This document shows positions 1,811-13,853 of a stretch of 64,000 bases of DNA, piece by piece. The translations under genes were made by a program, and so were the position numbers. Source of the stretch: Candidatus Nomurabacteria bacterium (GTDB lineage: Bacteria > Patescibacteriota > Minisyncoccia > Phycocordibacterales > UBA918); assembly GCA_020632075.1 (NCBI GenBank), contig JACKGH010000001.1, positions 387,216-451,215 of the forward strand, written 5' to 3'. Under the pieces are notes generated by a model that was not told where the DNA came from, ran no database searches, and was given only the letters and a program-made list of their open reading frames with translations. How positions within the stretch are numbered: position 1 is the first letter of the stretch; every line of letters starts with the position of its first letter.

Positions 1811-2839
1811 TCACTTTTTAGACAACACCGCCCGCTTGTATACATCGAGATGTTCGAGCGCGATACCGGTTCCCTTTGCGACACAAAAGAGTGCCTGATC
1901 AGCCACTTGCGCCTTTACACCAGTACGACGACGGATGAGCTCAGGAAAATTACGCAACTGCGAAGTACCACCAGTCATAATGATGCCGCCGTCAATAATG
2001 TCGGCCGCCAGTTCAGGTGGAGTATTCTGAAACACATCCTTGATCGCCTTGACCATCTCTCGTAGCTCTTTACCGATCGCCTTCACTACCTCATTACTCC
2101 TCATTTCAGTTGTGCGTGGCAAGCCTGAGAGCATGTCACGTCCTTTAATCTCCATAGAAAGTTCTTCTTCAAGCGGCAACGCTGAACCGATCGTGATCTT
2201 GATCTCCTCTGCAGTCTTCTCACCGATCGAGAGATTGCGACTCTTTTTGACATAGTCTACGATCGCAGCATCGATACGGTTCCCCGCACACTTCACTGAG
2301 TTGGCCGCCACGATACCACCAAGCGAGATGACAGCCACATCGATCGTGCCGCCACCAATATCGACGATCATATGTCCTTGTGGCTCATAGATCTCTACTC
2401 CGGCGCCGATCGCAGCTAAGATCGGCTCTTTCACCACAAACGCATTCTTGGCGCCGGCTTTGATCGCCGCCTCCACCACCGCGCGCCGCTCAGTAGAAGT
2501 TACTCCGGCCGGCACCGACACCATCACATCAGGTCGAAACAGGTGATACTTACTCATCGACTTACGCATGAAGTACCGTAGCATTGCTTCGGTCACCCGG
2601 TAGTCAGCGATGACTCCGTCTTTCATTGGGCGATAGGCGCGAATACTCTCTGGCGTACGACCGATCATGAGCTTCGCTTCAGAACCGACTGCCAGCACTT
2701 TATTATCATCACTCACTGCCACCACCGATGGTTCATTGAGCACGATCCCTTGCCCGGGCACGAACACGAGAATATTGGTCGTACCAAGATCGATCCCCAC
2801 TTTTGGTGTAAAGTTGCCGAACATGTTTAGTATCGACAA
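1811..2839 (-). CDS. mreB: rod shape-determining protein MreB (actin-like ATPase)
   Basis: MFGNF...VGIDLGTTN phosphate-1 motif, DIGGGTID, GIVLNEPSVVA; full-length 342 aa; start could be the second ATG (2824). Confidence 0.9.
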   Translation of the reverse strand: MSILNMFGNFTPKVGIDLGTTNILVFVPGQGIVLNEPSVVAVSDDNKVLAVGSEAKLMIGRTPESIRAYRPMKDGVIADYRVTEAMLRYFMRKSMSKYHLFRPDVMVSVPAGVTSTERRAVVEAAIKAGAKNAFVVKEPILAAIGAGVEIYEPQGHMIVDIGGGTIDVAVISLGGIVAANSVKCAGNRIDAAIVDYVKKSRNLSIGEKTAEEIKITIGSALPLEEELSMEIKGRDMLSGLPRTTEMRSNEVVKAIGKELREMVKAIKDVFQNTPPELAADIIDGGIIMTGGTSQLRNFPELIRRRTGVKAQVADQALFCVAKGTGIALEHLDVYKRAVLSKK

Positions 2840-2890
2840 TAGTACCGGTTTTCAACAAATACACAACTCGCTTTGCTATTAAAAAATGAC

Positions 2891-2913
2891 GGGCGCTCAC
2901 CTTGTGAGCGCCC
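2891..2913 (-). terminator. rho-independent terminator (GGGCGCTCA/TGAGCGCCC hairpin + T-run on minus strand)
   Basis: 9-bp GC stem followed by TTTTTT on minus strand, downstream of gene 2946..3344. Confidence 0.55.
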
Positions 2914-2945
2914 AAATGACTTTCGCAGCAGACATCACCGCAGTC

Positions 2946-3344
2946 CTACCTGAACGGCATAAAACTTGACCACGGCATGGAATTGTTGATCTGCCGATTC
3001 ATCACTCCCATCTGCGCTGGCACCGCCTGTCCCATGTACCCCACTGAGTGTGACATATTATTAACGTTTACCTCCATACGCTGGACTGCGAGATTCATAT
3101 CTGCCACCGAGACTACTAGGCCAGGAAACGACTCAGACATCGGTTCCATGACCTTGCTGAAGCTGACAATGCTGTCAGTGATATCGTTCACATTGTCTGC
3201 GCCCCGCTGCCAGAGTCTCTCGTAGTACGGGATCTTTTCTCTCAACAACTCCCCATAGTAGATTCCATAGTGCGCAAGTATCCCGAGACACACGATCACC
3301 GAGATCAGTGCGCCAATGGTCAAAACTTGAATGGCTATTTTCAT
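2946..3344 (-). CDS. hypothetical small membrane/secreted protein (132 aa, N-terminal TM helix)
   Basis: ORF track; GGGGGT SD 6 nt upstream of ATG; hydrophobic N-terminus. Confidence 0.5.
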   Translation of the reverse strand: MKIAIQVLTIGALISVIVCLGILAHYGIYYGELLREKIPYYERLWQRGADNVNDITDSIVSFSKVMEPMSESFPGLVVSVADMNLAVQRMEVNVNNMSHSVGYMGQAVPAQMGVMNRQINNSMPWSSFMPFR

Positions 3345-3455
3345 AGTACCCCCGTCAAGTATCCAAACACGATCTGCGGACAGGATACACCTCCTGCGAG
3401 CAGAAGCAAGAAAAGCAAAAGTGTGTCATGTAGTGAAAAAGCTTTTACACAAAAA

Positions 3456-3475
3456 GCGCGCCGCAAGCGGCGCGC
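3456..3475 (-). terminator. rho-independent terminator (GCGCGCCG-CAAG-CGGCGCGC + T-run on minus strand)
   Basis: 8-bp GC stem, T-run CTTTTTGTG on minus strand just downstream of gene 3498..3875. Confidence 0.55.
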
Positions 3476-3497
3476 CCATAGAACAACCATAACGTGT

Positions 3498-3875
3498 TTA
3501 CTTCCTTGGCAAAGAAAGCGTAAAACCATACATCCCATCGATGGTCGATCGATAGGTGGTTTGCCATTCCTTCGCGTGAAAAATGTCGTGCGCCGACACC
3601 GCCACCTTATTCAACACTTCTTCCACTGCATCTGACTGGACCACGACCTTGCCGACGGATTCTCCTTCCTCCGCCGAAAGATCTGCATAGTACAGCACCT
3701 CGATCAAGACCTTTCCTTCTCCTTCAGCGAAACGCAAAAGAAACGTGTACTCGTCACGAATTCGCTCGCACATGAAAGCATGTGCCGCACGGCACACTTC
3801 TCGCGCCACCGATCCGATAACCCTTTGATGCCCGATCTTAACGGTTTCCACCGACAGATCCAATTCGTTTGCCAT
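3498..3875 (-). CDS. hypothetical protein (125 aa)
   Basis: ORF track; perfect AAGGAGG SD upstream of ATG; no family recognised. Confidence 0.55.
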   Translation of the reverse strand: MANELDLSVETVKIGHQRVIGSVAREVCRAAHAFMCERIRDEYTFLLRFAEGEGKVLIEVLYYADLSAEEGESVGKVVVQSDAVEEVLNKVAVSAHDIFHAKEWQTTYRSTIDGMYGFTLSLPRK

Positions 3876-3947
3876 GACTCCTCCTTATTAGGTAGTCTTG
3901 AAACACAAAATTCTATTCGGTACTATTTGTATCATAAATTTGTATTT

Positions 3948-3991
3948 TGTCAATGTGCGTATCGATGCATCTATCATAGCATATATGCTAT
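3948..3991 (+). promoter_or_regulatory. putative murA promoter (TTGTCA ... TATCAT) overlapped by 16-bp perfect palindrome ATAGCATATATGCTAT (3976..3991), candidate operator
   Basis: Palindrome read directly; lies between -10-like hexamer and ATG at 4003 of the HTH-MurA fusion gene. Confidence 0.4.
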
Positions 3992-4002
3992 ATTGATTAC
4001 CT

Positions 4003-5502
4003 ATGCAACACATTGGAACCCGCATCGCCGACGTCCGCGAGACCCTCGGCCTCACGCAGACAGACTTAGCCAAAAAGATCAAAACCACCCAGAGTGCGAT
4101 CGCTCGCATAGAAGCCGGCAGACAAAATGTCAGTGCTGATATGCTGAAGCGCATCAGCAAGGCTCTCGGGAAAAATCTCATCACCCTCTCCCCTGGTACC
4201 GTCAATGTACGGATCGGTGGTGGCAAAAAACTCACCGGCACCATTGAGACCAACACGTCAAAAAACGGTGCAGTCGGCCTCCTGTGTGCATCACTCCTCA
4301 ATAAAGGCACCACCACCCTTCACCGCATGCCACGCATCGAAGAGGTACACCGCATTATCGAGGTACTCGAGAGCATTGGTGTAAAAGTGGAATGGAAAGG
4401 CACTACCGTAACGATCACTCCGCCAAAAAAGTTTGAACTACAAAAGATCGACAAGGTTGCCGCCATGCGTACTCGCAGTATCGTGATGTTCATCGGCCCA
4501 CTCATGCATCACCTGAAGTCATTTTCGCTGCCACAGTCTGGCGGTTGTAAGCTTGGCAGCCGTACGGTGAAGCCGCATTTCTTTGCACTAGAACACTTCG
4601 GAGTGGATATTAAAGCGACTGAGGATTCGTTTGTTGTGAAGACTGTGCCACGGCCGGCCGGCGAGATCATTCTGTATGAATCTGGTGACACCGTGACCGA
4701 AAACGCACTCTTTGCAGCCGCCGGCCGGCCGGAGACCACCATCATCAAGTACGCCACTGCCAACTACATGGTGCAGGAAGTCTGCAACTTCCTGTGTCAG
4801 CTTGGAGTGAAGATCGAAGGCTATGGCACTACCACCTTGAAAGTAACTGGGGTTAAAGATATTGATCAGGATGTCGAATACACTCTATCTGAAGACCCGA
4901 CCGACAGTATGTTCTTCCTAGCTGCCGCGATCGTGACCAATTCCAGCATTACCATTACTCGTTGTCCGATCGAATTCCTTGAACTTGAGCTGCTCAAGCT
5001 TGAGAAGATGGGCTTTAAGTGTAAAAAGTCTAAGCCGTACCTGAGCCATAATGGCGCCACCAAGCTGGTCGATATCACCACCAAACCATCGAAGCTCGTG
5101 GCACTTCATGAAAAGATCCATCCGGCAGTGTACCCAGGACTCAACATGGACAATCTCCCCTTCTTTGCCGTGATTGCTACCCAAGCCGCTGGACAAACAC
5201 TCATTCATGACTGGGTGTACGAAAAGCGTGCAATCTACTTCACTGAGCTTGATAAACTTGGCGCCGATACCGTCCTCGCTGATCCACACCGCATCTTTAT
5301 CACCGGCCCGACCAAGCTACGCGCCACTGAGCTAGTGTGTCCACCTGCCCTTCGTCCAGCCACTATCTTACTCATTGCTATGCTTGGCGCTGAAGGAGAA
5401 TCGGTGCTGCGCAACATCTACAGCATCAACCGTGGCTATGAGAAATTGGTAGAACGACTCGCGAGCTTAGGTGCAGACATTTCGTATTTGGATGAGTTTT
5501 AA
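4003..5502 (+). CDS. murA: UDP-N-acetylglucosamine 1-carboxyvinyltransferase (MurA) with N-terminal XRE-family helix-turn-helix domain fused in frame (499 aa)
   Basis: Residues about 60-499 align with MurA throughout (KNGAVGLLCASLL, active-site loop LPQSGGCKLGSRTVKPH with Cys, C-terminal NRGYEKLVERLASLGADI); residues about 8-60 LGLTQTDLAKKIKTTQSAIARIEAGRQNVSADMLKRISKALG are a canonical Cro/C1-type HTH; single uninterrupted ORF. Confidence 0.85.
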   Translation: MQHIGTRIADVRETLGLTQTDLAKKIKTTQSAIARIEAGRQNVSADMLKRISKALGKNLITLSPGTVNVRIGGGKKLTGTIETNTSKNGAVGLLCASLLNKGTTTLHRMPRIEEVHRIIEVLESIGVKVEWKGTTVTITPPKKFELQKIDKVAAMRTRSIVMFIGPLMHHLKSFSLPQSGGCKLGSRTVKPHFFALEHFGVDIKATEDSFVVKTVPRPAGEIILYESGDTVTENALFAAAGRPETTIIKYATANYMVQEVCNFLCQLGVKIEGYGTTTLKVTGVKDIDQDVEYTLSEDPTDSMFFLAAAIVTNSSITITRCPIEFLELELLKLEKMGFKCKKSKPYLSHNGATKLVDITTKPSKLVALHEKIHPAVYPGLNMDNLPFFAVIATQAAGQTLIHDWVYEKRAIYFTELDKLGADTVLADPHRIFITGPTKLRATELVCPPALRPATILLIAMLGAEGESVLRNIYSINRGYEKLVERLASLGADISYLDEF

Positions 5503-5557: not shown

Positions 5558-5585
5558 GATCCAGACCATTTCCTAGGTCTGGATC
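5558..5585. terminator. bidirectional terminator hairpin GATCCAGACC-N8-GGTCTGGATC between convergent murA and giant surface-protein gene
   Basis: Perfect 10-bp stem read directly; located in the 125-bp gap between convergent stops. Confidence 0.55.
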
Positions 5586-5627
5586 TGGTCGCAGCGAGCT
5601 GCAATAATATCTGAACCACCACGCACT

Positions 5628-8600
5628 TTATTCAAACTTAATATTCCCCCGCAGCAACAATTCCCCTTGCTGCTTGAACGACCCCTGTGCACGAGTCGCC
5701 GCTTCGGACATGATGATATACACTCGACCTTCATTTGAAGAATCGTCATATCCGTGTGCACCGATAACCAGATCATCAACCCCATCACCCGAAACGTCGC
5801 CAGCTGCGAGAGAAATACCAAAGTTACTATTTGTTGCTTCACCACTGATCTTCACACCGCTGTCGATTGCATCTGAGGTGTGTAAATTATCACCGTAAAA
5901 GAGGTAGACGTCTCCGGTAAAGGTGTCGCTGCGCCACGCACCCACTGCAAGATCGTCAACTCCGTCACGATCAAAGTCGCCAGTTGCAAGTGTTGTACCT
6001 AAGTTATCATCACTACTTGCCTCACCACTTAATATCACATCTGCAGACGATGCAGAGATCGATCCTGAGAGCGTCGCATTGTAGAAAACATACACTCGAC
6101 CACTAAATGAATCATATCGGTATGACCCAACCGCCAGATCGTCTTTGCCGTCGGCATTATAGTCACCCACTGTAAGAGCCCCACCAAAATACGCACTAGT
6201 ACCCACTCCCGTCATAATTACATCTGCCGTTGAAGCGTTTGCAGAACTCATCGAGCCGCCGTAGAAGACATAGGCGCGACCGGTATTGCTGTATACATAC
6301 GCCCCCACCACCAAGTCATCTATACCATCATTATCAAAATCACCTGTAGCCACCCTGTCTCCAAAGTAGTTACTCGTTCCTTCACCAGTGTATGTCACAT
6401 CTGCGCCGGTTGCGTTTTCATCGATCATTGAGCCGCCGTAGAAGACATAGGCGCGACCGGTATTACCACCGTTTGAATAACCATACGCACCAACTACGAG
6501 ATCATCGGTGCCGTCTGCATTGTAGTCACCTGTCGTAAGAGAATGTCCAAAGTAACCAAGTATCCCCTCACCGGTTAGCGTCACATCAGCATCACTCGCG
6601 TCACCGTCAGCTAAGCTGCCGCCATAGAAAATATAGGTGCGACCAGCACCACTTCCATACGAAGTAGCACTAACCACCAAGTCGTCAACTCCATCGTTGT
6701 TAAAGTCACCCTTAGTTAGGGCTGTTCCAAACGCCGTACCACTGTCGCCGGTCAGCGTTACATCTGCACTAGTCGTGGTTGTGGAATGTTTAACACCTCC
6801 ATAGAAGATGTAGGTGCGGCCTTGGTTTGAGTTGTATCCCGCAGCACTTACTGCCAAGTCATTTTTTCCATCATTATTAAAGTCTCCTACAACAACATCC
6901 TTACCGAGATCATCTTCAGACGCAGCACCGGTCACCTGCCAATCATTCGTCGTGTAGAAATACAACCGACCTTGGTTAGAATTATACAAATGTGCGCCTA
7001 TCACCAAATCGTCACCACCGTCGTTATTAATATCCCCTGCAGCCATGTAACGTCCGTAATACCCTGTCTCTCCGTCGAGAGTAACATCAGCACCAGAGGC
7101 GTTTTCAGTAATTATCGAACCACCGTAGAAGATGTAGGCACGGCCTTGGGAAGAGTTGTAGCCAACCGCACCGACTGCAAGATCCTCCATGCCGTCGTGA
7201 TTAAAATCACCCGAAATTAAATCAAGACTAAAACTGTTACTAGTCGCTTCACCGGTCAATGTCACATCAGCACCAGAGGCGTTTTCAGTAATTATCGAAC
7301 CACCGTAGAAGATGTAGGCACGGCCTTGGGAAGAGTTGTAGCCATGTGCACTAACTACCAAGTCATCACTCCCGTCTGAATTGAAATCACCCGAACTAAG
7401 TACAACACCTAGGTAACTATTTCCGGCTTCGCCGGTGATAATCGCATCCGCGCCCGATGCATTTTCAGAGATCATTGCACCACCGTAGAAGATGTAGGCA
7501 CGGCCCTCGTAACTGCCATATGTATTTGCCCCAACCGCGAGATCGTCTTCCCCGTCTGAATTGAAATCGCCAGTTGCTAGAGAGGTTCCAAAATTATTAG
7601 TGGTGGCTTGGCCAGTCAGTGTCACATCAGCACCAGAAGCGTTTTCAGTAATCATCGAACCACCATAGAAGATGTAGGCACGGCCAGTAGCAGAACTGTA
7701 GCTGTTAGCTGAAACGGCCAAGTCCTCTACACCGTCAGCATTAAAATCGCCAACGGCAAGTGCTGACCCAAAACTGTTACTCGCACCTTCACCAGTCAAT
7801 ACAACGTCAGCATCGGTTGCGTTTCCACTAGCTATACCACCTCCATAGAAGATATATGCCCGACCAACTGTACCACCATACAATGTCGCACCCACCACGA
7901 GATCATCTTTGCCATCATTGTTAAGGTCACCTATTTCCAAATTAACTCCAAAGTAGTTGGTAGCAGCTTCCCCCTCGATAATCACATCAGCTCGTCCGGC
8001 TTTGGTTTGATAACTCCCGTCGTTGTAGAAGATATACACTCTCCCAGCATTTGAATTGTAAGAGTAAGCCCCCACCACAAGATCATCCTTACCATCATTG
8101 TTAAGGTCACCGATCGCACTTGCTGCTGCAAAAAGATTTGAGGCACTTTCCCCCGTAATCTTCAGCTCATAGCCCATGATCGGATCAACCCGCAAGCCAT
8201 CAGATAGTGGCGAGCGCTGGATCTCCCAGGCGTAGTCCTCGCGGGTTTCGTAGAAATAGATGCGGCCGGTGTCGCCGCCATTGTTGTAGCCCGGAGCACC
8301 AATCACGAGGTCGTCTTTGCCGTCGGCGTTGAAGTCGCCAGTTATGAACGCGTGACCGAAGTCATCGTTGGTACTGTCTCCGGTGATGATGATGTCGGCG
8401 CTGGCGGCTGCAGTCGGGTACGAGCCGTCGTTGTAGAAGATGTAGGTGCGGCCTTGATAGGTATTGTATTGCCAGGCTCCTACCACGATATCTGTCTGAC
8501 CATCGTGATTGAGATCGCCGGCGGTCAACGCGGTACCAAAACTGCTTAAAGCTTCACCGGTCAAAGTCACATCTGCAGCGCTATCAGTAGTACTTGCCAG

Positions 8601-11600
8601 AATGTTCCCATAGAAAATGTACACTCGACCTTGATTTGAGCTGTAACCCGGGGCACCGATGACGAGGTCATCACGACCGTCGCTATTGAAGTCTCCGATA
8701 GTAAGAGCATTCGCAAAAGCAGATGCTGCGATAGTTCCAGTAAGTATGACATCTGCCAAGCTGTCAGATGAGCTCGCAAGCGAACCTCCGTAAAAAACGT
8801 AGGCACGACCAAGGTTGCTACTATAGCCTGTAGCGCCGACAATCAGATCGTCGATTCCGTCGGAATTAAGATCACCCGTCGCTAAAGAGTAGCCGAACGC
8901 TTCAGCTGTTCCGTCGTTTGTGTATAACACGTCACTGGTGCTTGCATATTCAGACACTAAGTCTCCATAAAACACATACGTCCGACCCTTGGAGCCACCA
9001 TATAAAAACGCACCAACTGCCAAATCATCTTTTCCATCAGCATCATAGTCTCCGACAGCGAGCGAAGAGCCAAAGAAACTCACAGTCGCCTCGCCAGTCA
9101 GAGTTACATCCGCACCTGAAGCGCCTTCTGACACCATAGCTCCACCATAAAATACATATACTTCTCCTGTAAGTGTTGTCTTGATCGACGCACCAACCAC
9201 CAAGTCATCAACTCCGTCACTGTTGAAGTCTCCGACAGCGAGCGCTCCGCCAAAATTACTCGAACTATCTCCTGTTAGAGTAACGTCACTCGTACTCGCC
9301 AAGGTAGTATAGTCTCCATCATTGTAAAAAATGTACACCTTACCTGCGTTGGAATTGTCTAAATATGCACCAACCGCAAGGTCATCTCTACCGTCGTTAT
9401 TAAAATCTCCTGTTGCAAAGGATTTACCAAAGTAGTCGCTCGTTCCCTCGCCGGTGATGTGCTGGTCGAGGTTCACCTGGCCAGATTGAGAGTAGAAGAT
9501 GTAGGTTCGGCCTTGGGAGGAGTTATAGGCATATGCTCCTGCCACCAAGTCTTCCTTGCCATCATGATTGAGATCAGCAACAGCAAGAGCGTTGTATCCA
9601 AAAAAATTCGACGTACTTTCACCGGTTATTATCAGATCTGCAGACGTTGCATTTCCGCTAATTATTGATCCACCGTAAAAAACATAGACTCGTCCTTCAT
9701 TAGTCGTCACATCATACCCAGGAGCACTTACAACGAGGTCATCACTACCATCAGCATTCAAGTCTCCCTGTGCAAGGGTAAAGCCAAACTGTCCATTGGT
9801 TGAAGATTCTCCTGTTAGGGTCACGTCTGCACCAGAAGCGCTTTCGCTCACCATCATACCGCCGTAAAAAATGTACACTGCTCCCTGACTACTACTAACA
9901 GCAATTGCTCCAATAGCAAGATCGTCGGTCCCGTCATTATTTAGGTCTCCTATCGTTACTGAGTTACCAAAAAACATGCTGGAAGCTCCTCCCGAAAGCA
10001 CAACATCCGCCGCGGAGGCACTCGAACTCGACATGCTACCACCATAAAAAACGTAGGCTCTTCCTTGAGTAACACTGTATGCACGAGCAGTCGCTACAAG
10101 ATCATCAATCCCATCGCTGTTCAAGTCTCCGCTTGTGATCGCATAACCAAAGAAATTGTTGCCAGCTTCTCCTGTGTACACTACATCGGCATTTGAAGTA
10201 ACATCAGACGAGACAGGTCCATAGAAAATATATGTGCGACCAGTCCGGCTCGTATATCCATACGCCCCGACCGCGACATCCTTCACCCCATCGCCATTGT
10301 AATCAGCAACTCCTATTGCTGTTCCTGTATTTTCACCTGCGATACTTCCTGTGAGGGTGACATCAGCAGTGTTAGCTGAGCCACTTTCGATCGGTCCTCC
10401 AAACCATATGTACACTCGACCCTCTGTATTTGACACGTCATAGTTATAGGCACCCACCAGGAGATCGTCGGTCCCGTCACCGTTTACATCACCACTCGTT
10501 AAAGAGTAACCAAACAGATCTCCTGCGACTTCGCCAGTAATGATAACCGGAGCATCGGCGGCATACCCCGTGCTTTCACCACCCCAAAAAATGTACACTC
10601 GTCCAATATCTGTAGAACCCCCATCATCGTAGTCATGTGCCCCTACAGCTAGATCTGTCTTCCCGTCGCTATTCCAGTCTCCGATTGCAACCGCCTTACC
10701 ATATTCACTATTAGTCGCTTCCCCCGTAATCACATCCCCTGAGTTACTCACCCCCGGCGCCGTAAACTGCAGCGTCGGATCAAGCGCAATTGGGTAGCCA
10801 AGGAGTGGTACATCAAAGGAGACGGAAAGAACATAGTCACCAGAGGTGTCATTTGGATCGATGGTAGAGGCTTTGGTCACCTGCCACTCATGGGTCTGTT
10901 GGTTGCCTTGAGCATCAATGGTGTATGGAGCCGGGATGATGAGGTCTGGGGCGCGGTTCTCAATATCAGCCAGCATATCAGCAGCAATCGTGCGCTGCGC
11001 TCTCGCCCAAAGGTCTTCTTCGACGCCCGGTTCGGGTGGCGTGTTGGTCGGAAGATAACGGACTTCGACCTCACCACGGTCGTTGGTGGTTAAGTGAGCG
11101 TTTGAGAAGGTGTATGACTGGGTTTCGTGACCAGTGCCGGTTTGGAAGATGGTCCAGTGTTTTAAGTTGCGGTACCCGGCAGCTTGGTCTTTCTGGTAGG
11201 CGTAGTAGGTGTGGAGGCGGTTGTCTTCGCTTGTGTACTTAAGGTATTGCGGCGACACAGCACCGGACACAACTTCGCTCAGGGAGCGCTCCGGGCCGCT
11301 AGGCCAAGTCATACTCCCTTCTCGAAGTGTGTCCGGTACCGTGTCTTCGTTTGTACCCGCTGTCAGTAGCGACGCACGATGTGGCTGGGTGGTGTTGTGT
11401 CGCACCGTGAACTGTCTGTTGCCAGGGAGCGTGATGGTGAGAGGTTCGTTGAGAGAATCTGGGAACTGGAGGGAGAGGGATTCACTAAGATCTGGTGAAG
11501 CAAAGGTAGTACTCGCTTGATTGCCATAGGTGATCTCTACCCCGTCTTTAAGGGTATCGGTGAGGGTACGTTCTTCGGAGAGTGAGACCAGTGGGTACTG

Positions 11601-11768
11601 AGAGAAGTCTTCTTCGACACGCTGTCCGACGAGATCGAATTGAGAGAGGTCGGTGGTGATGTCAGGTGCTTGATTTGGTTTAAAAAATCCAGAGAGATAC
11701 AACACGAAAAACACAACTGCTACTCCAGCCAACACAATTAACGTTCGGTACGTACCTGTACCTGGCAT
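5628..11768 (-). CDS. giant membrane-anchored surface protein with about 28 FG-GAP (integrin-alpha-like) repeats, about 2046 aa
   Basis: ORF track 5628..11810 (TTG); likely ATG start 11768 (MPGTGTYRTLIVLAGVAVVFFVLYL TM anchor); after a roughly 380-aa non-repeat region, repeated about 60-aa units FGxSLAxGDxNxDGxDDLxVGA...GRxYxFYG run to the C-terminus. Confidence 0.8.
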   Translation of the reverse strand: MPGTGTYRTLIVLAGVAVVFFVLYLSGFFKPNQAPDITTDLSQFDLVGQRVEEDFSQYPLVSLSEERTLTDTLKDGVEITYGNQASTTFASPDLSESLSLQFPDSLNEPLTITLPGNRQFTVRHNTTQPHRASLLTAGTNEDTVPDTLREGSMTWPSGPERSLSEVVSGAVSPQYLKYTSEDNRLHTYYAYQKDQAAGYRNLKHWTIFQTGTGHETQSYTFSNAHLTTNDRGEVEVRYLPTNTPPEPGVEEDLWARAQRTIAADMLADIENRAPDLIIPAPYTIDAQGNQQTHEWQVTKASTIDPNDTSGDYVLSVSFDVPLLGYPIALDPTLQFTAPGVSNSGDVITGEATNSEYGKAVAIGDWNSDGKTDLAVGAHDYDDGGSTDIGRVYIFWGGESTGYAADAPVIITGEVAGDLFGYSLTSGDVNGDGTDDLLVGAYNYDVSNTEGRVYIWFGGPIESGSANTADVTLTGSIAGENTGTAIGVADYNGDGVKDVAVGAYGYTSRTGRTYIFYGPVSSDVTSNADVVYTGEAGNNFFGYAITSGDLNSDGIDDLVATARAYSVTQGRAYVFYGGSMSSSSASAADVVLSGGASSMFFGNSVTIGDLNNDGTDDLAIGAIAVSSSQGAVYIFYGGMMVSESASGADVTLTGESSTNGQFGFTLAQGDLNADGSDDLVVSAPGYDVTTNEGRVYVFYGGSIISGNATSADLIITGESTSNFFGYNALAVADLNHDGKEDLVAGAYAYNSSQGRTYIFYSQSGQVNLDQHITGEGTSDYFGKSFATGDFNNDGRDDLAVGAYLDNSNAGKVYIFYNDGDYTTLASTSDVTLTGDSSSNFGGALAVGDFNSDGVDDLVVGASIKTTLTGEVYVFYGGAMVSEGASGADVTLTGEATVSFFGSSLAVGDYDADGKDDLAVGAFLYGGSKGRTYVFYGDLVSEYASTSDVLYTNDGTAEAFGYSLATGDLNSDGIDDLIVGATGYSSNLGRAYVFYGGSLASSSDSLADVILTGTIAASAFANALTIGDFNSDGRDDLVIGAPGYSSNQGRVYIFYGNILASTTDSAADVTLTGEALSSFGTALTAGDLNHDGQTDIVVGAWQYNTYQGRTYIFYNDGSYPTAAASADIIITGDSTNDDFGHAFITGDFNADGKDDLVIGAPGYNNGGDTGRIYFYETREDYAWEIQRSPLSDGLRVDPIMGYELKITGESASNLFAAASAIGDLNNDGKDDLVVGAYSYNSNAGRVYIFYNDGSYQTKAGRADVIIEGEAATNYFGVNLEIGDLNNDGKDDLVVGATLYGGTVGRAYIFYGGGIASGNATDADVVLTGEGASNSFGSALAVGDFNADGVEDLAVSANSYSSATGRAYIFYGGSMITENASGADVTLTGQATTNNFGTSLATGDFNSDGEDDLAVGANTYGSYEGRAYIFYGGAMISENASGADAIITGEAGNSYLGVVLSSGDFNSDGSDDLVVSAHGYNSSQGRAYIFYGGSIITENASGADVTLTGEATSNSFSLDLISGDFNHDGMEDLAVGAVGYNSSQGRAYIFYGGSIITENASGADVTLDGETGYYGRYMAAGDINNDGGDDLVIGAHLYNSNQGRLYFYTTNDWQVTGAASEDDLGKDVVVGDFNNDGKNDLAVSAAGYNSNQGRTYIFYGGVKHSTTTTSADVTLTGDSGTAFGTALTKGDFNNDGVDDLVVSATSYGSGAGRTYIFYGGSLADGDASDADVTLTGEGILGYFGHSLTTGDYNADGTDDLVVGAYGYSNGGNTGRAYVFYGGSMIDENATGADVTYTGEGTSNYFGDRVATGDFDNDGIDDLVVGAYVYSNTGRAYVFYGGSMSSANASTADVIMTGVGTSAYFGGALTVGDYNADGKDDLAVGSYRYDSFSGRVYVFYNATLSGSISASSADVILSGEASSDDNLGTTLATGDFDRDGVDDLAVGAWRSDTFTGDVYLFYGDNLHTSDAIDSGVKISGEATNSNFGISLAAGDVSGDGVDDLVIGAHGYDDSSNEGRVYIIMSEAATRAQGSFKQQGELLLRGNIKFE
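7081..7700. repeat. near-identical 84-nt DNA repeats with 180-bp period inside the FG-GAP gene
   Basis: 7081..7164 and 7261..7344 differ at 1 nt (gtaacatc vs gtcacatc); related copies start at about 7441 and about 7621; correspond to repeated protein segment GRAYIFYGGSIITENASGADVTLTGE. Confidence 0.8.
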
Positions 11769-11848
11769 GACACTAATAATAGCACTGCAACACCTGATCT
11801 TTTTCCACAAGTTAACAGTAAGATAGGGCTTTTGGAGCAGCCCGCTGC

Positions 11849-11960: not shown

Positions 11961-13853
11961 ATGTTCGTGATCCAAGTAACCCCGCTTATTCGTGGCACCA
12001 AGCTTGAATCACTTTCCTATTTTTCAGGCACAGACTACGCCATCGGTAGCTTTATTGAAGTGCCGATTCGCGGAAAAAAGCAAGCGGCGATCGTCATTGA
12101 GACCAAGCCGGTCAGTAGTACGAAGACCGCTCTTAAGGCAGCCACTTTTTCATTACGAAAACTTCCCACTCAACCAGACCCAACCGTCCTCCCTGAAACG
12201 ATCCGTAAGACCGCTGACATGCTAACAAGGCACTACCCCGCCTCGGTCGGGGCGATCTTGTTTGGACTACTCCCGCCAGACATCCGCAATGGCAGTCGAC
12301 CATACCCACGCAGTGAGTTCATGCAACAGTGCGAAGAGACCACACCACAACTCCTGACAGCTCGAGTAGATGAACGATATGTAGCATATCAAAGCCTCAT
12401 CCGCACCACCTTCGCACATCGAGGATCGATCATGGTCGTAGTACCAACCGCCGTTGATGTGACCTATGCGCAAAAAGAACTAGGTGCGGGTATTAGTGAT
12501 CGCACGATCATATTTTCACCGAACCAGACGAAGCGACAACGAGACACGTCATACCAAAAACTCGCCGATACGACGACTGCAAAGCTGATCATTACCACCC
12601 CATCACACGCGTATCTAGAGCGTATCGATCTCATGACGATCGTCATTGAGCAAGCAGCCAGCAATCACTACGTGACTCGTCAACGCCCCTATCTGGATCA
12701 TCGCACTGCGCTCATTACCTTTGCTAAGCAAGCAGGACGCTCGATCGTACTCGGTGATACCGTACATCGCACTGAAGACGAAGTGCGGCGCCGTGAAGAG
12801 ATCTATCTTACTTATGGCGAAGAAGCGAAGCGAATTGCATTCACCGCGCCACTCTCGATCATCAAACAAAAGGATAAACCGCGACCTGACGTGCCGTTTC
12901 AGTTGTTTTCTGATGAGTTGGTGACCAGTGTGGAGCGGGCGCTTGAGGCGCGAGGCCACGTCTTTTTCTATGCCGCTCGTCGTGGCCTCGCGCCGGTTGT
13001 CGCCTGTATCGACTGCGGTCTTATTTTCCGCTGCCCTGACTCAAACACACCGTATTCACTAGTTCGCACAAACAAAAACGGCGAGGAAGAACGCTGGTTT
13101 GTCTCGAGTACGTCGGGTCGCCGCGTTCGCGCATCAGATGTCTGCGAGAAGTGCGGCTCATGGCGCCTGCGCGAACGCGGCATCGGCATTCAGCAAGTCT
13201 ACGATGAGTGGAAAAGCAAAATGCCGAGCTGCGACGTAACTATCATGGACAACACCACCGCCAGCACACCAAAGCAGGCTGAAAAAATGGCCAGGGAATT
13301 CTTTGAGAAGCGCTGCGGTGTACTGATAGGCACCCAGATAGCACTGCCGTTCTTAAGCCAAGGTGTTGAGGTGAGTGCGATCATTTCACTCGATGCAGCG
13401 AGAGCTATTCCAACCTGGCGCGCTGACGAATCACTCTTTCGTTTACTACTCCGCTTGCGCGAATGTACTTCAAAAGAAGTCTTGATACAGACACGTACCG
13501 AAACCGACAACCTCCTCATCCATGCGACACGCGGTGCGGTGGAACGTTTTTATGATGACGAGATCGCACTGCGAAAAATGGTGCAATATCCACCCTTCAA
13601 CATCTTCATTCTGCTTACCTGGGTTGGTACTGCTCAGTCTGCACTTGAACTCGAAAAGCCAGTACGAGAAACCCTTAAAGCCTTTCCGATCCAGTACTAC
13701 AACAACCCTAATTCTACCTACAGCAAAACCCAGCGACACGGGCTTATTCGTGTACCAGCCAGCGATAAAGCATTATTCCAAACTATCCTCACGACACTAC
13801 GCACTATTCCGCCGTATGTAAAGGTCGAGATCGATCCAGAGAGAATCGTGTAA
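11961..13853 (+). CDS. priA: primosomal protein N' (PriA)-like with degenerate helicase motifs
   Basis: N-terminal 3'-DNA-binding-like region (VIQVTPLIRG...YAIGSFIEVPIRGKKQAAIVIE), Cys-rich zinc region (CIDCG...CPDS...CEKCGS), YPPF motif near C-term; no GxGKT Walker A and DEEH replaced by IEQAA. Confidence 0.65.
   Translation: MFVIQVTPLIRGTKLESLSYFSGTDYAIGSFIEVPIRGKKQAAIVIETKPVSSTKTALKAATFSLRKLPTQPDPTVLPETIRKTADMLTRHYPASVGAILFGLLPPDIRNGSRPYPRSEFMQQCEETTPQLLTARVDERYVAYQSLIRTTFAHRGSIMVVVPTAVDVTYAQKELGAGISDRTIIFSPNQTKRQRDTSYQKLADTTTAKLIITTPSHAYLERIDLMTIVIEQAASNHYVTRQRPYLDHRTALITFAKQAGRSIVLGDTVHRTEDEVRRREEIYLTYGEEAKRIAFTAPLSIIKQKDKPRPDVPFQLFSDELVTSVERALEARGHVFFYAARRGLAPVVACIDCGLIFRCPDSNTPYSLVRTNKNGEEERWFVSSTSGRRVRASDVCEKCGSWRLRERGIGIQQVYDEWKSKMPSCDVTIMDNTTASTPKQAEKMAREFFEKRCGVLIGTQIALPFLSQGVEVSAIISLDAARAIPTWRADESLFRLLLRLRECTSKEVLIQTRTETDNLLIHATRGAVERFYDDEIALRKMVQYPPFNIFILLTWVGTAQSALELEKPVRETLKAFPIQYYNNPNSTYSKTQRHGLIRVPASDKALFQTILTTLRTIPPYVKVEIDPERIV

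Follow-up and report, generated by a model that had tools for sequence, protein, structure and literature searches.

Why should the enzyme that opens peptidoglycan synthesis carry a DNA-binding domain, and why should a perfect palindrome lie at the promoter of its gene? Both questions are raised by a stretch of 64,000 nucleotides (the window) from the genome of a Candidatus Nomurabacteria bacterium (contig JACKGH010000001.1), in which a helix-turn-helix (HTH) domain of the XRE family is fused in frame to MurA, the enolpyruvyl transferase that acts on uridine diphosphate N-acetylglucosamine (UDP-GlcNAc). Fosfomycin targets MurA, whose reaction is the first committed one on the way to peptidoglycan. 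The fused protein is, in our judgement, probably bifunctional: an active MurA that would repress its own gene by binding an operator at the promoter. An earlier note on this DNA had proposed the in-frame fusion and an autoregulatory palindrome; the analyses described here uphold the former and lend strong support to the latter.

The fusion gene (for coordinates of all features see Table 1) runs through 499 uninterrupted codons, with zero stops or frameshifts. A domain search with profile models, the first check suggested in the earlier note, matched both HTH_3 and EPSP_synthase. The HTH_3 profile (PF01381) covers residues 8-59 (E-value 1e-14; 54.7 bits against a Pfam gathering score of 23), and the Pfam models HTH_31 (40.7 against 27) and HTH_19 (35.0 against 30.2) also exceed their cut-offs at the N-terminus, so the complete Cro/C1-type HTH that had been placed at about residues 8-60 stands. 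In the AlphaFold2 model of the fusion (mean predicted local distance difference test score, pLDDT, 92.1; predicted template modelling score 0.84) a four-helix HTH is followed by a MurA body. The helices of the HTH span residues 4-14, 19-25, 30-37 and 45-55, with pLDDT values of 76-94. Within the linker, residues 61-65 are modelled with pLDDT below 50, and the linker sequence is still fairly well conserved across orthologues. The fused HTH could be aligned to the N-terminal domain of the phage 434 repressor with an E-value of 3e-5 (TTQSAIARIEAG versus TTQQSIEQLENG), and the counterpart of the Gln at the start of the 434 repressor helix (Q28) is kept. The best single match in the PDB is DBP48, while the 434 repressor is the closest solved relative with a natural operator. 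Profile score, predicted fold and the palindromic site near its own promoter all place the HTH in the XRE/Cro-C1 family.

The enzyme part is of full length, since the EPSP_synthase match of Pfam extends over residues 73-486 and profile positions 3-417 of 417. With a score of 306.7 (cut-off 297), the protein passes NF006873, a MurA subfamily model of NCBIfam. As the earlier note had stated, the catalytic Cys lies in the same uninterrupted open reading frame (ORF), where C182 is found in the motif GGCKLGSR. Eight key residues were checked (K22, N23, R91, C115, R120, D305, R371 and R397, numbered on what we take to be the E. coli MurA sequence, which has the expected residue at each of the eight positions). 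All eight are intact in the window protein (K87, N88, R156 or R158, C182, R187, D383, R409 and R451), and the same holds for all relatives of its kind that were examined, here called class I. Target-normalised template modelling scores (TM-scores) obtained with Foldseek reach up to 0.95 for MurA structures (6q03, 1a2n), compared with 0.83-0.84 for NikO and 0.76-0.81 for EPSP synthases. The enzyme part therefore looks catalytically competent, as predicted from its residues and fold.

All 8000 scored database candidates were significant MurA matches. The best 120 of these 8000 are without exception fusions with both domains, about 499 amino acids (aa) in length and with 82-91% identity, and include one partial sequence of 100% identity; their source names give MurA of Candidatus Nomurabacteria, Kaiserbacteria, Paceibacterota or Parcubacteria. 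A scan with one genome per species, which defines the locus set used below, yielded 80 loci from Patescibacteria-type assemblies at 56-90% identity. In these loci of different species, all from the ultra-small, uncultured Patescibacteria or candidate phyla radiation (CPR), the fusion forms a contiguous ORF. The single-frame fusion is thus repeated well beyond the window, and the search of related genomes proposed in the earlier note found it both here and in the cultured actinomycete genus Nonomuraea. Mean identity across orthologues is 70% in the HTH region versus 77% in the enzyme part. Fusions of full length are found down to 32-39% identity in a library clustered at 50% identity. Its top representative is P0121 (54% identity, 509 aa), a Nonomuraea protein that stands for 246 cluster members; close unfused relatives are also present (P0122, 59% identity; P0123, 50%). 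On the strength of sequence conservation the fusion is considered real, old and under selection. In the Paceibacteria and their relatives, a large uncultured group, MurA normally takes this form.

The earlier note had not recognised this architecture as described, which is correct in one respect and not in another. Fusions of this type are abundant in databases, where NCBI/JGI annotation names them MurA or 'helix-turn-helix domain-containing protein', and a survey of Pfam architectures tallied HTH_3 as a 'promiscuous EPSPS-associated domain' (PMC9394408). No functional study of an HTH-MurA protein was found in the literature searchable with MurA plus HTH, Patescibacteria/CPR, XRE, the Pfam names or the operator sequence.

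The palindrome upstream of the gene is perfect and 16 bp long, as had been claimed; its distance from the ATG is 11 nt, and not 12 nt. One perfect 16-bp palindrome was found in the 64-kb window versus a mean of 1.03 in shuffled sequences. The window alone is thus not statistically striking, and the case for a function rests on conservation in relatives. No second copy of the palindrome, either with up to three mismatches or in the form ATAGC-N6-GCTAT, was found within the 64 kb. The earlier note had further proposed that the palindrome overlaps the -10 region, and a putative element of this kind was noted at this position in the window and, as an equivalent TATAnT hexamer, in 62 related loci. 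No Shine-Dalgarno sequence precedes the ATG of the fusion gene in the window, although a strong one, AAGGAGGAG, stands before the divergent ORF at 3875. Because the putative -10 element lies close to the ATG without a Shine-Dalgarno sequence, a transcript that starts at or beside the ATG, and would be leaderless or near-leaderless, is suggested.

A site of the form AT..C-N6-G..AT was identified upstream of the fusion in 79 of the 79 loci with readable upstream DNA, and in 62 of them it starts 25-30 nt before the ATG. The TATAnT hexamer of these 62 loci (TATACT in 23, TATATT in 11 and TATAGT in 7) starts within the final 3 nt of the palindromic site, and 6-11 nt, typically 8-9 nt, separate its end from the ATG, while a Shine-Dalgarno-like tetramer is present in a single locus. 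This conserved arrangement suggests an operator placed on the -10 box of a leaderless promoter with a predicted start at or near the ATG. The half-sites ATAGC and GCTAT are invariant in 67 loci; the central 6 bp occur in 23 forms, many of which are not self-complementary. Invariant half-sites around a variable spacer are what would be expected of a site for two protein subunits one helical turn apart, and not of a hairpin. Of the related loci in that class, 66 of 66 carry the motif ATAGC-N6-GCTAT at the promoter of the orthologue, and no occurrence outside those promoters was found in 562 kb of related loci.

The half-sites change together with the helix predicted to read them. Recognition helices of the type xTQSA(I/V)AR go with ATAGC half-sites in all 67 loci of this kind, whereas xSQSA(V/I)(A/P)R helices go with ATATC, ATCTC or ATACC, altered on both arms, in 12 of 12. 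The residue before Q30 is accordingly T in every one of the 67 ATAGC loci and S in the other 12. Two Taylorbacteria loci (63% identity) sort by helix type and not by overall divergence.

The site is also absent where the HTH is absent. In locus L063 synteny with the cell-shape gene mreB is kept, MurA begins with MDKPIVNIEVQGG and has no HTH, and the intergenic region (2880-3010) contains no operator-like palindrome; likewise, no operator was found upstream of the unfused relative in L206. Conversely, the site is present with the gene in a distant genome. The orthologue of Nonomuraea phyllanthi (WP_139636312.1; 54% identity), encoded in a genome of 70% GC, has a TSQS helix and the sequence ATCTCATATGTGAGAT at position -28, which indicates that the operator travels with the gene. 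In this species mreB is not adjacent to the HTH-MurA gene, and a phage-type integrase gene adjoins it, which suggests that the gene was acquired horizontally, between Patescibacteria-like bacteria and Actinomycetota. The N. phyllanthi protein possibly has a role other than that of a housekeeping MurA. Through its conservation in 79 of 79 loci, the co-variation of helix and site, the co-transfer to Nonomuraea and the loss with the HTH, the palindrome is strongly supported as a candidate operator of the fused XRE domain, the reading that the earlier note had given it.

A further group of fusions separates the putative regulatory function from catalysis. Seven deep-branching fusions (P0131, P0132, P0137, P0145, P0146, P0214 and P0232), here called class II, have kept the HTH helix ((T/S)SQSA..) and lost the Cys loop (C115), R120 and most of the arginines. 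Three of the class II genes are arranged head-to-head with a canonical murA gene (438-452 aa) or its operon: the neighbours are murA-murB in L203 and L208, and a small ORF, a Mur ligase gene and murA in L207. In each of these three loci a Mur ligase or ddl gene follows the fusion, with an overlapping start. The operator of L203, ATATCATATATGATAT, is located at -28, just downstream of a TTGACA hexamer and inside the promoter core. The same sequence is found at -16 in L207, and the corresponding sites are ATAACATATATGCTAT at -26 in L208 and ATATCAGATATGATAT at -21 in L210. The loss of the catalytic residues, with HTH and operator retained, supports a regulatory function of the HTH for which catalysis is not needed. 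Judged by its residues, the class II protein can only be a regulator, placed beside cell-wall precursor genes, which suggests that the MurA fold may be able to act as a ligand-sensing domain.

One further class II locus has a different setting. In L205 the catalytically dead fusion P0145 comes second in an operon that also contains a sugar-nucleotidyl-transferase gene, and two operator-like sites (1686-1701, 2242-2257) were noticed, ATATCATATAGGATAT (7/8 symmetric) before an upstream NUDIX gene and ATAACAAGTATGATAT before the transferase gene. These sites hint at a small nucleotide-sugar regulon.

We propose the following mechanism. The N-terminal 60 residues would act as a DNA-binding domain of the 434-repressor/XRE type and the C-terminal 430 residues as the MurA enzyme. 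Two copies of the protein would bind the ATAGC and GCTAT half-sites of the 16-bp operator. Since the operator overlaps the putative -10 element, the bound protein would block RNA polymerase there and at the probable transcription start, and negative autoregulation would result. Where mreB adjoins the HTH-murA gene, repression would extend to mreB. Sequence and comparison show the fusion, its fold and intact catalytic residues, and the conservation, co-variation, co-transfer and co-loss of the operator; we infer that the protein binds DNA, that it does so as a dimer and represses instead of activating, that the transcript has no leader, and that binding may be controlled by MurA ligands, namely UDP-GlcNAc, phosphoenolpyruvate (PEP) and UDP-N-acetylmuramic acid (UDP-MurNAc).

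Several observations weigh against an autorepressing enzyme of this kind. MurA enzymes are generally described as monomeric, and the pairing of two HTH domains therefore needs explaining. The MurA equivalog models are below their cut-offs (TIGR01072, 296 against 392.7; NF009470, 212 against 552), and the failure to reach the TIGR01072 threshold marks the MurA domain as divergent. A generic promoter scan points to another start: it reported TTGAAA-17-TACTAT at 3898-3926, from which the operator would fall inside the 5′ leader. That site is the sole upstream match and is non-significant (2.9 expected), and TGcTATATT was missed by the scan for want of a -35 box. Searches of 64 kb of this genome and of approximately 7.5 kb per relative gave no additional copies of the operator, and a regulon within that range was accordingly rejected. 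Finally, the association of helix and half-site consists of one deep phylogenetic split plus Nonomuraea and class II, and because it tracks one deep split it represents few independent events; among the class II fusions, P0137 combines a TSQS helix with the hybrid site ATAAC...GCTAT.

The gene neighbourhood bears on how far the proposed control would reach. In 68 of the 80 loci mreB lies on the opposite strand from HTH-murA. In most of these its ATG is situated 40-65 nt to the left of the operator, the whole gap being about 75-95 bp with the operator in the middle, so the site is placed to affect both promoters and joint control of mreB and HTH-murA is probable. The window departs from this arrangement. 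An insertion of about 1.1 kb separates mreB from the operator, and mreB is therefore probably uncoupled from the site in this genome. The two ORFs of the insertion gave no Pfam match and have no homologue in the 80 related loci. About 1 kb is inserted at the same gap in a few relatives (L001, L003, L006, L012 and L015 among them). Several relatives carry different inserts there, so the space between the two genes appears to be a hot spot for insertions.

Table 1. Location of the features discussed in the text (window positions, except for the Nonomuraea phyllanthi region)
Feature	Coordinates	Strand	Details
Operator candidate, perfect 16-bp palindrome ATAGCATATATGCTAT	3976..3991	.	half-sites ATAGC/GCTAT, 6-bp spacer
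Putative extended -10 element TGcTATATT	3986..3994	+	predicted; overlaps right arm of operator candidate
HTH-MurA fusion gene	4003..5502	+	499 aa plus stop; single reading frame
XRE/Cro-C1-type helix-turn-helix domain	4012..4179	+	residues 4-59; Pfam, AlphaFold2, 434 repressor alignment
Recognition helix T28-T29-Q30-S31-A32-I33-A34-R35-I36-E37	4084..4113	+	aligns with TTQQSIEQLE of 434 repressor
Short linker ITLSPGTV	4180..4203	+	residues 60-67
MurA (UDP-GlcNAc enolpyruvyl transferase) domain	4204..5499	+	residues 68-499; Cys182 codon 4546-4548
mreB	1811..2839	-	Pfam MreB_Mbl, E-value 4e-130; displaced about 1.1 kb from operator
Lineage-specific insertion between mreB and operator	2946..3875	-	ORFs 2946..3344 and 3498..3875 (132 and 125 aa); terminator-like hairpin between them, 3454-3477
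FG-GAP gene	5628..11810	-	2060 aa, nearly all FG-GAP repeats (28 repeat matches); inserted between murA and 630-aa gene
630-aa gene	11961..13853		usual downstream neighbour of HTH-murA in relatives
HTH-MurA region of N. phyllanthi	L081, CP045572, 4282-8657		order: formyltransferase/enoyl-CoA-hydratase fusion gene, 15-nt gap, HTH-MurA, phage-type integrase gene

The other ORFs sampled in the window encode Trk transporters, CreD, an acetyl-CoA synthetase, an acyltransferase and a glycosyltransferase, and no cell-wall precursor genes were found among them. The murA and FG-GAP genes converge on a 10-bp inverted repeat with a 9-nt loop (GATCCAGACC...GGTCTGGATC, 5558-5586) that lies between their ends. 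It may be a two-way terminator; it has no T-run and was not reported by the terminator scan.

A scan of metagenomes for the exact 16-mer ATAGCATATATGCTAT, meant to find other target genes, returned at least 120 loci. Four true HTH-murA loci are among the 120 matches listed, and in 39 of the 120 an XRE-type HTH is encoded within 1.5 kb of the 16-mer. Many of these 39 are small stand-alone XRE genes whose product has a recognition helix of the type T[TK]QS.I[AS]R and which adjoin the exact 16-mer. The stand-alone proteins are mostly antitoxin partners of Gp49/HigB-like toxins. As other proteins use the same pair of HTH and operator, the fusion probably recruited a ready-made autoregulatory module of the XRE antitoxin type. 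The antitoxins of the Gp49/HigB-like pairs resemble the fusion in their 16-mer and in their helix, and differ from it in size (about 100 aa) and in that the partner of the fused HTH is an enzyme in cis. The possibility that the fusion itself is the antitoxin of a toxin-antitoxin system was considered and rejected: there is no adjacent toxin gene, and the scores for TIGR03070 (41 against 71.65) and HigA (28 against 47.7) are below the cut-offs.

Other features of the 16-mer loci were recorded in passing. In L145 (363-378), L148, L151, L084, L112, L171, L136, L195 and L142 the identical palindrome accompanies a gene pair that encodes a small Gp49/HigB-like protein and an XRE partner of about 100 aa. 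The palindrome spans the stop of the first gene and the XRE ATG, or it sits upstream of the pair. The XRE helix of these pairs is GT[KT]QS[VA]I[SA]R, and no protein reaches a curated NCBIfam cut-off. Two tandem palindromes, (AT)GTTGCATTAATGCTAC and then ATAGCATATATGCTAT, lie directly before a gene whose product begins MSRNPEEP in L083 (344-377), L095, L105, L150, L157 and L193, and in reverse orientation in L108, L129 and L169; a weak XRE-like HTH is encoded 35 nt downstream in L083. Together the two palindromes may serve a different family of regulators as a double operator. Of the 120 matches listed, about 50 (L085, e.g. 1704-1719, L086, L090, L098, L102 and some 45 more) belong to an unrelated repeat family, in which GACGGACGGACGGGCGATGGCATATAGCGCGCT is followed by the 16-mer and CGCGCGCTAAAAA and the whole is flanked by a GACR microsatellite. 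The family is abundant in a few sets of samples (Ga0056131/2, Ga0209681 and Ga0209788), looks eukaryotic-host-genomic and is unrelated to murA.

The proposed autorepressor may be compared with several known systems. In the operators of phage 434, short conserved half-sites flank a variable spacer of about 6 bp, a layout like that of the fusion operator. The fusion HTH passes the HTH_3 threshold, aligns to the 434 repressor and likewise has its site at its own promoter; the half-sites differ, ATAGC in the fusion versus ACAA in 434. Autoregulation and palindromic sites are general features of the XRE family (PMC12565409). Known XRE proteins carry a dimerisation, peptidase or cupin domain at the C-terminus, whereas the fusion carries a biosynthetic enzyme of 430 residues.

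In 'trigger enzymes' such as BirA, PutA and NadR, a metabolic enzyme and a DNA-binding domain are combined in one polypeptide that represses genes of its own pathway. HTH-MurA has the same architecture, with enzyme and HTH in one chain and a candidate operator at its own promoter, and would regulate in a comparable way. For BirA, PutA and NadR it is established that transcription is tied to the ligand state, whereas in HTH-MurA ligand control is a conjecture. None of the three is a MurA or a peptidoglycan enzyme, and 'trigger enzyme' denotes a functional class and not a sequence family. Canonical MurA shares the fold (TM-score up to 0.95) and the catalytic residues of the fusion and has no DNA-binding domain, in contrast to the fusion, where one is built in. 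The known control of MurA is post-translational and comprises feedback inhibition by UDP-MurNAc and, in Firmicutes, proteolysis by ClpCP. Many solved MurA structures (3su9, 3swd, 3swg, 8d84 and 6q03) hold UDP-MurNAc and a PEP-Cys adduct, so the MurA fold binds a downstream product of the pathway.

These features allow a wider but distinctly more tentative proposal, that HTH-MurA of both classes constitutes a transcriptional feedback system for cell-wall precursors in which the MurA fold serves as the sensor. The open-to-closed change of MurA upon binding of UDP-GlcNAc, PEP or UDP-MurNAc would alter the way in which the pair of HTH domains engages the operator. In class I a working enzyme might then tune its own synthesis, and in most relatives that of MreB as well, to precursor levels. 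In class II a duplicated copy might have lost catalysis and come to serve solely as sensor and repressor for canonical murA-murB, ddl and Mur-ligase operons.

A different reading, which we regard as unlikely, makes the window protein mainly a transcription factor: its MurA fold would sense precursors while a separate, canonical MurA catalyses. Class II took this route, having dead catalysis, a retained HTH and operator and, in L203, L207 and L208, an adjacent canonical murA; the low equivalog scores of the window protein also agree with it. For class I the evidence points the other way. The window protein, like each of the class I relatives examined, has all eight catalytic and substrate-binding residues, the Cys loop GGCKLGSR included, the enzyme part retains a mean identity of 77% across species, and no second EPSP_synthase-type gene is found beside class I fusions, whose neighbours are mreB and the 630-aa gene.

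RodZ offers another model for an HTH in a cell-wall protein. This membrane-anchored protein has an XRE-like HTH that binds MreB and not DNA, and the fused HTH could similarly be a protein-protein module that tethers MurA to MreB, the palindrome then being a promoter element or the site of another regulator. Both proteins combine an N-terminal XRE-like HTH with a role in the cell wall or cell shape and a link to mreB, which in 68 of 80 loci lies beside the fusion as a conserved neighbour on the opposite strand. We nevertheless hold this explanation to be improbable, as the fusion differs from RodZ in having a co-varying operator. The model HTH_25, which we take to be the Pfam model for RodZ-type HTH domains, is absent among the matches at an E-value of 0.01 or less, while HTH_3, HTH_31 and HTH_19 are all above their cut-offs. 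No membrane or hydrophobic segment follows the HTH, and its closest solved relative with a natural operator is a repressor whose helix-start Gln has a counterpart in the fusion. A tethering module would also leave unexplained the co-variation of helix and half-site, the transfer to Nonomuraea without an adjacent mreB and the loss of the site in L063 despite the presence of mreB. Tethering of this type and DNA binding are not mutually exclusive.

Slightly less probable still is the explanation that the palindrome is a DNA or mRNA hairpin, or an AT-rich promoter core kept for RNA polymerase. A stem of 5 bp, AU-rich and closed by a loop of 6 nt, would be marginal, and most loci have the palindrome at, or upstream of, the point where transcription is likely to start, although symmetric changes on two arms would also keep such a stem. 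The TATA-like sequence of the palindrome and its overlap with the putative -10 element would suit a promoter core, which leaves the exact two-fold symmetry unexplained. Neither version accounts for the link between helix and T or S, the use of the same 16-mer by unrelated XRE genes or the absence of the site where there is no HTH. An assembly error or frameshift joining a small XRE gene to murA can be dismissed as having a negligible chance, because 80 genomes assembled independently of one another share the same contiguous ORF of 499-509 aa, which also recurs in metagenome proteins by the thousand and in finished genomes of cultured Nonomuraea; the best 120 matches have this architecture as well.

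An autorepressing HTH-MurA would be new as an XRE autoregulator whose partner domain starts peptidoglycan synthesis and which has a sister class of pseudo-enzymes; the predicted regulatory logic itself has precedents. The cultured genus Nonomuraea, with a 54%-identical orthologue and its own operator, makes the idea directly testable. If it is true, direct transcriptional feedback is built into the entry enzyme of peptidoglycan synthesis and, through the promoter region shared with mreB, precursor supply would be linked to the cell-shape machinery. Ultra-small bacteria have small genomes and presumably few regulators, and the fusion is informative on how they regulate essential functions. Class II, beside canonical murA, shows how an enzyme can become a sensor-type transcription factor, and should the sensor reading prove true, the family would capture the transition from enzyme to regulator at intermediate stages.

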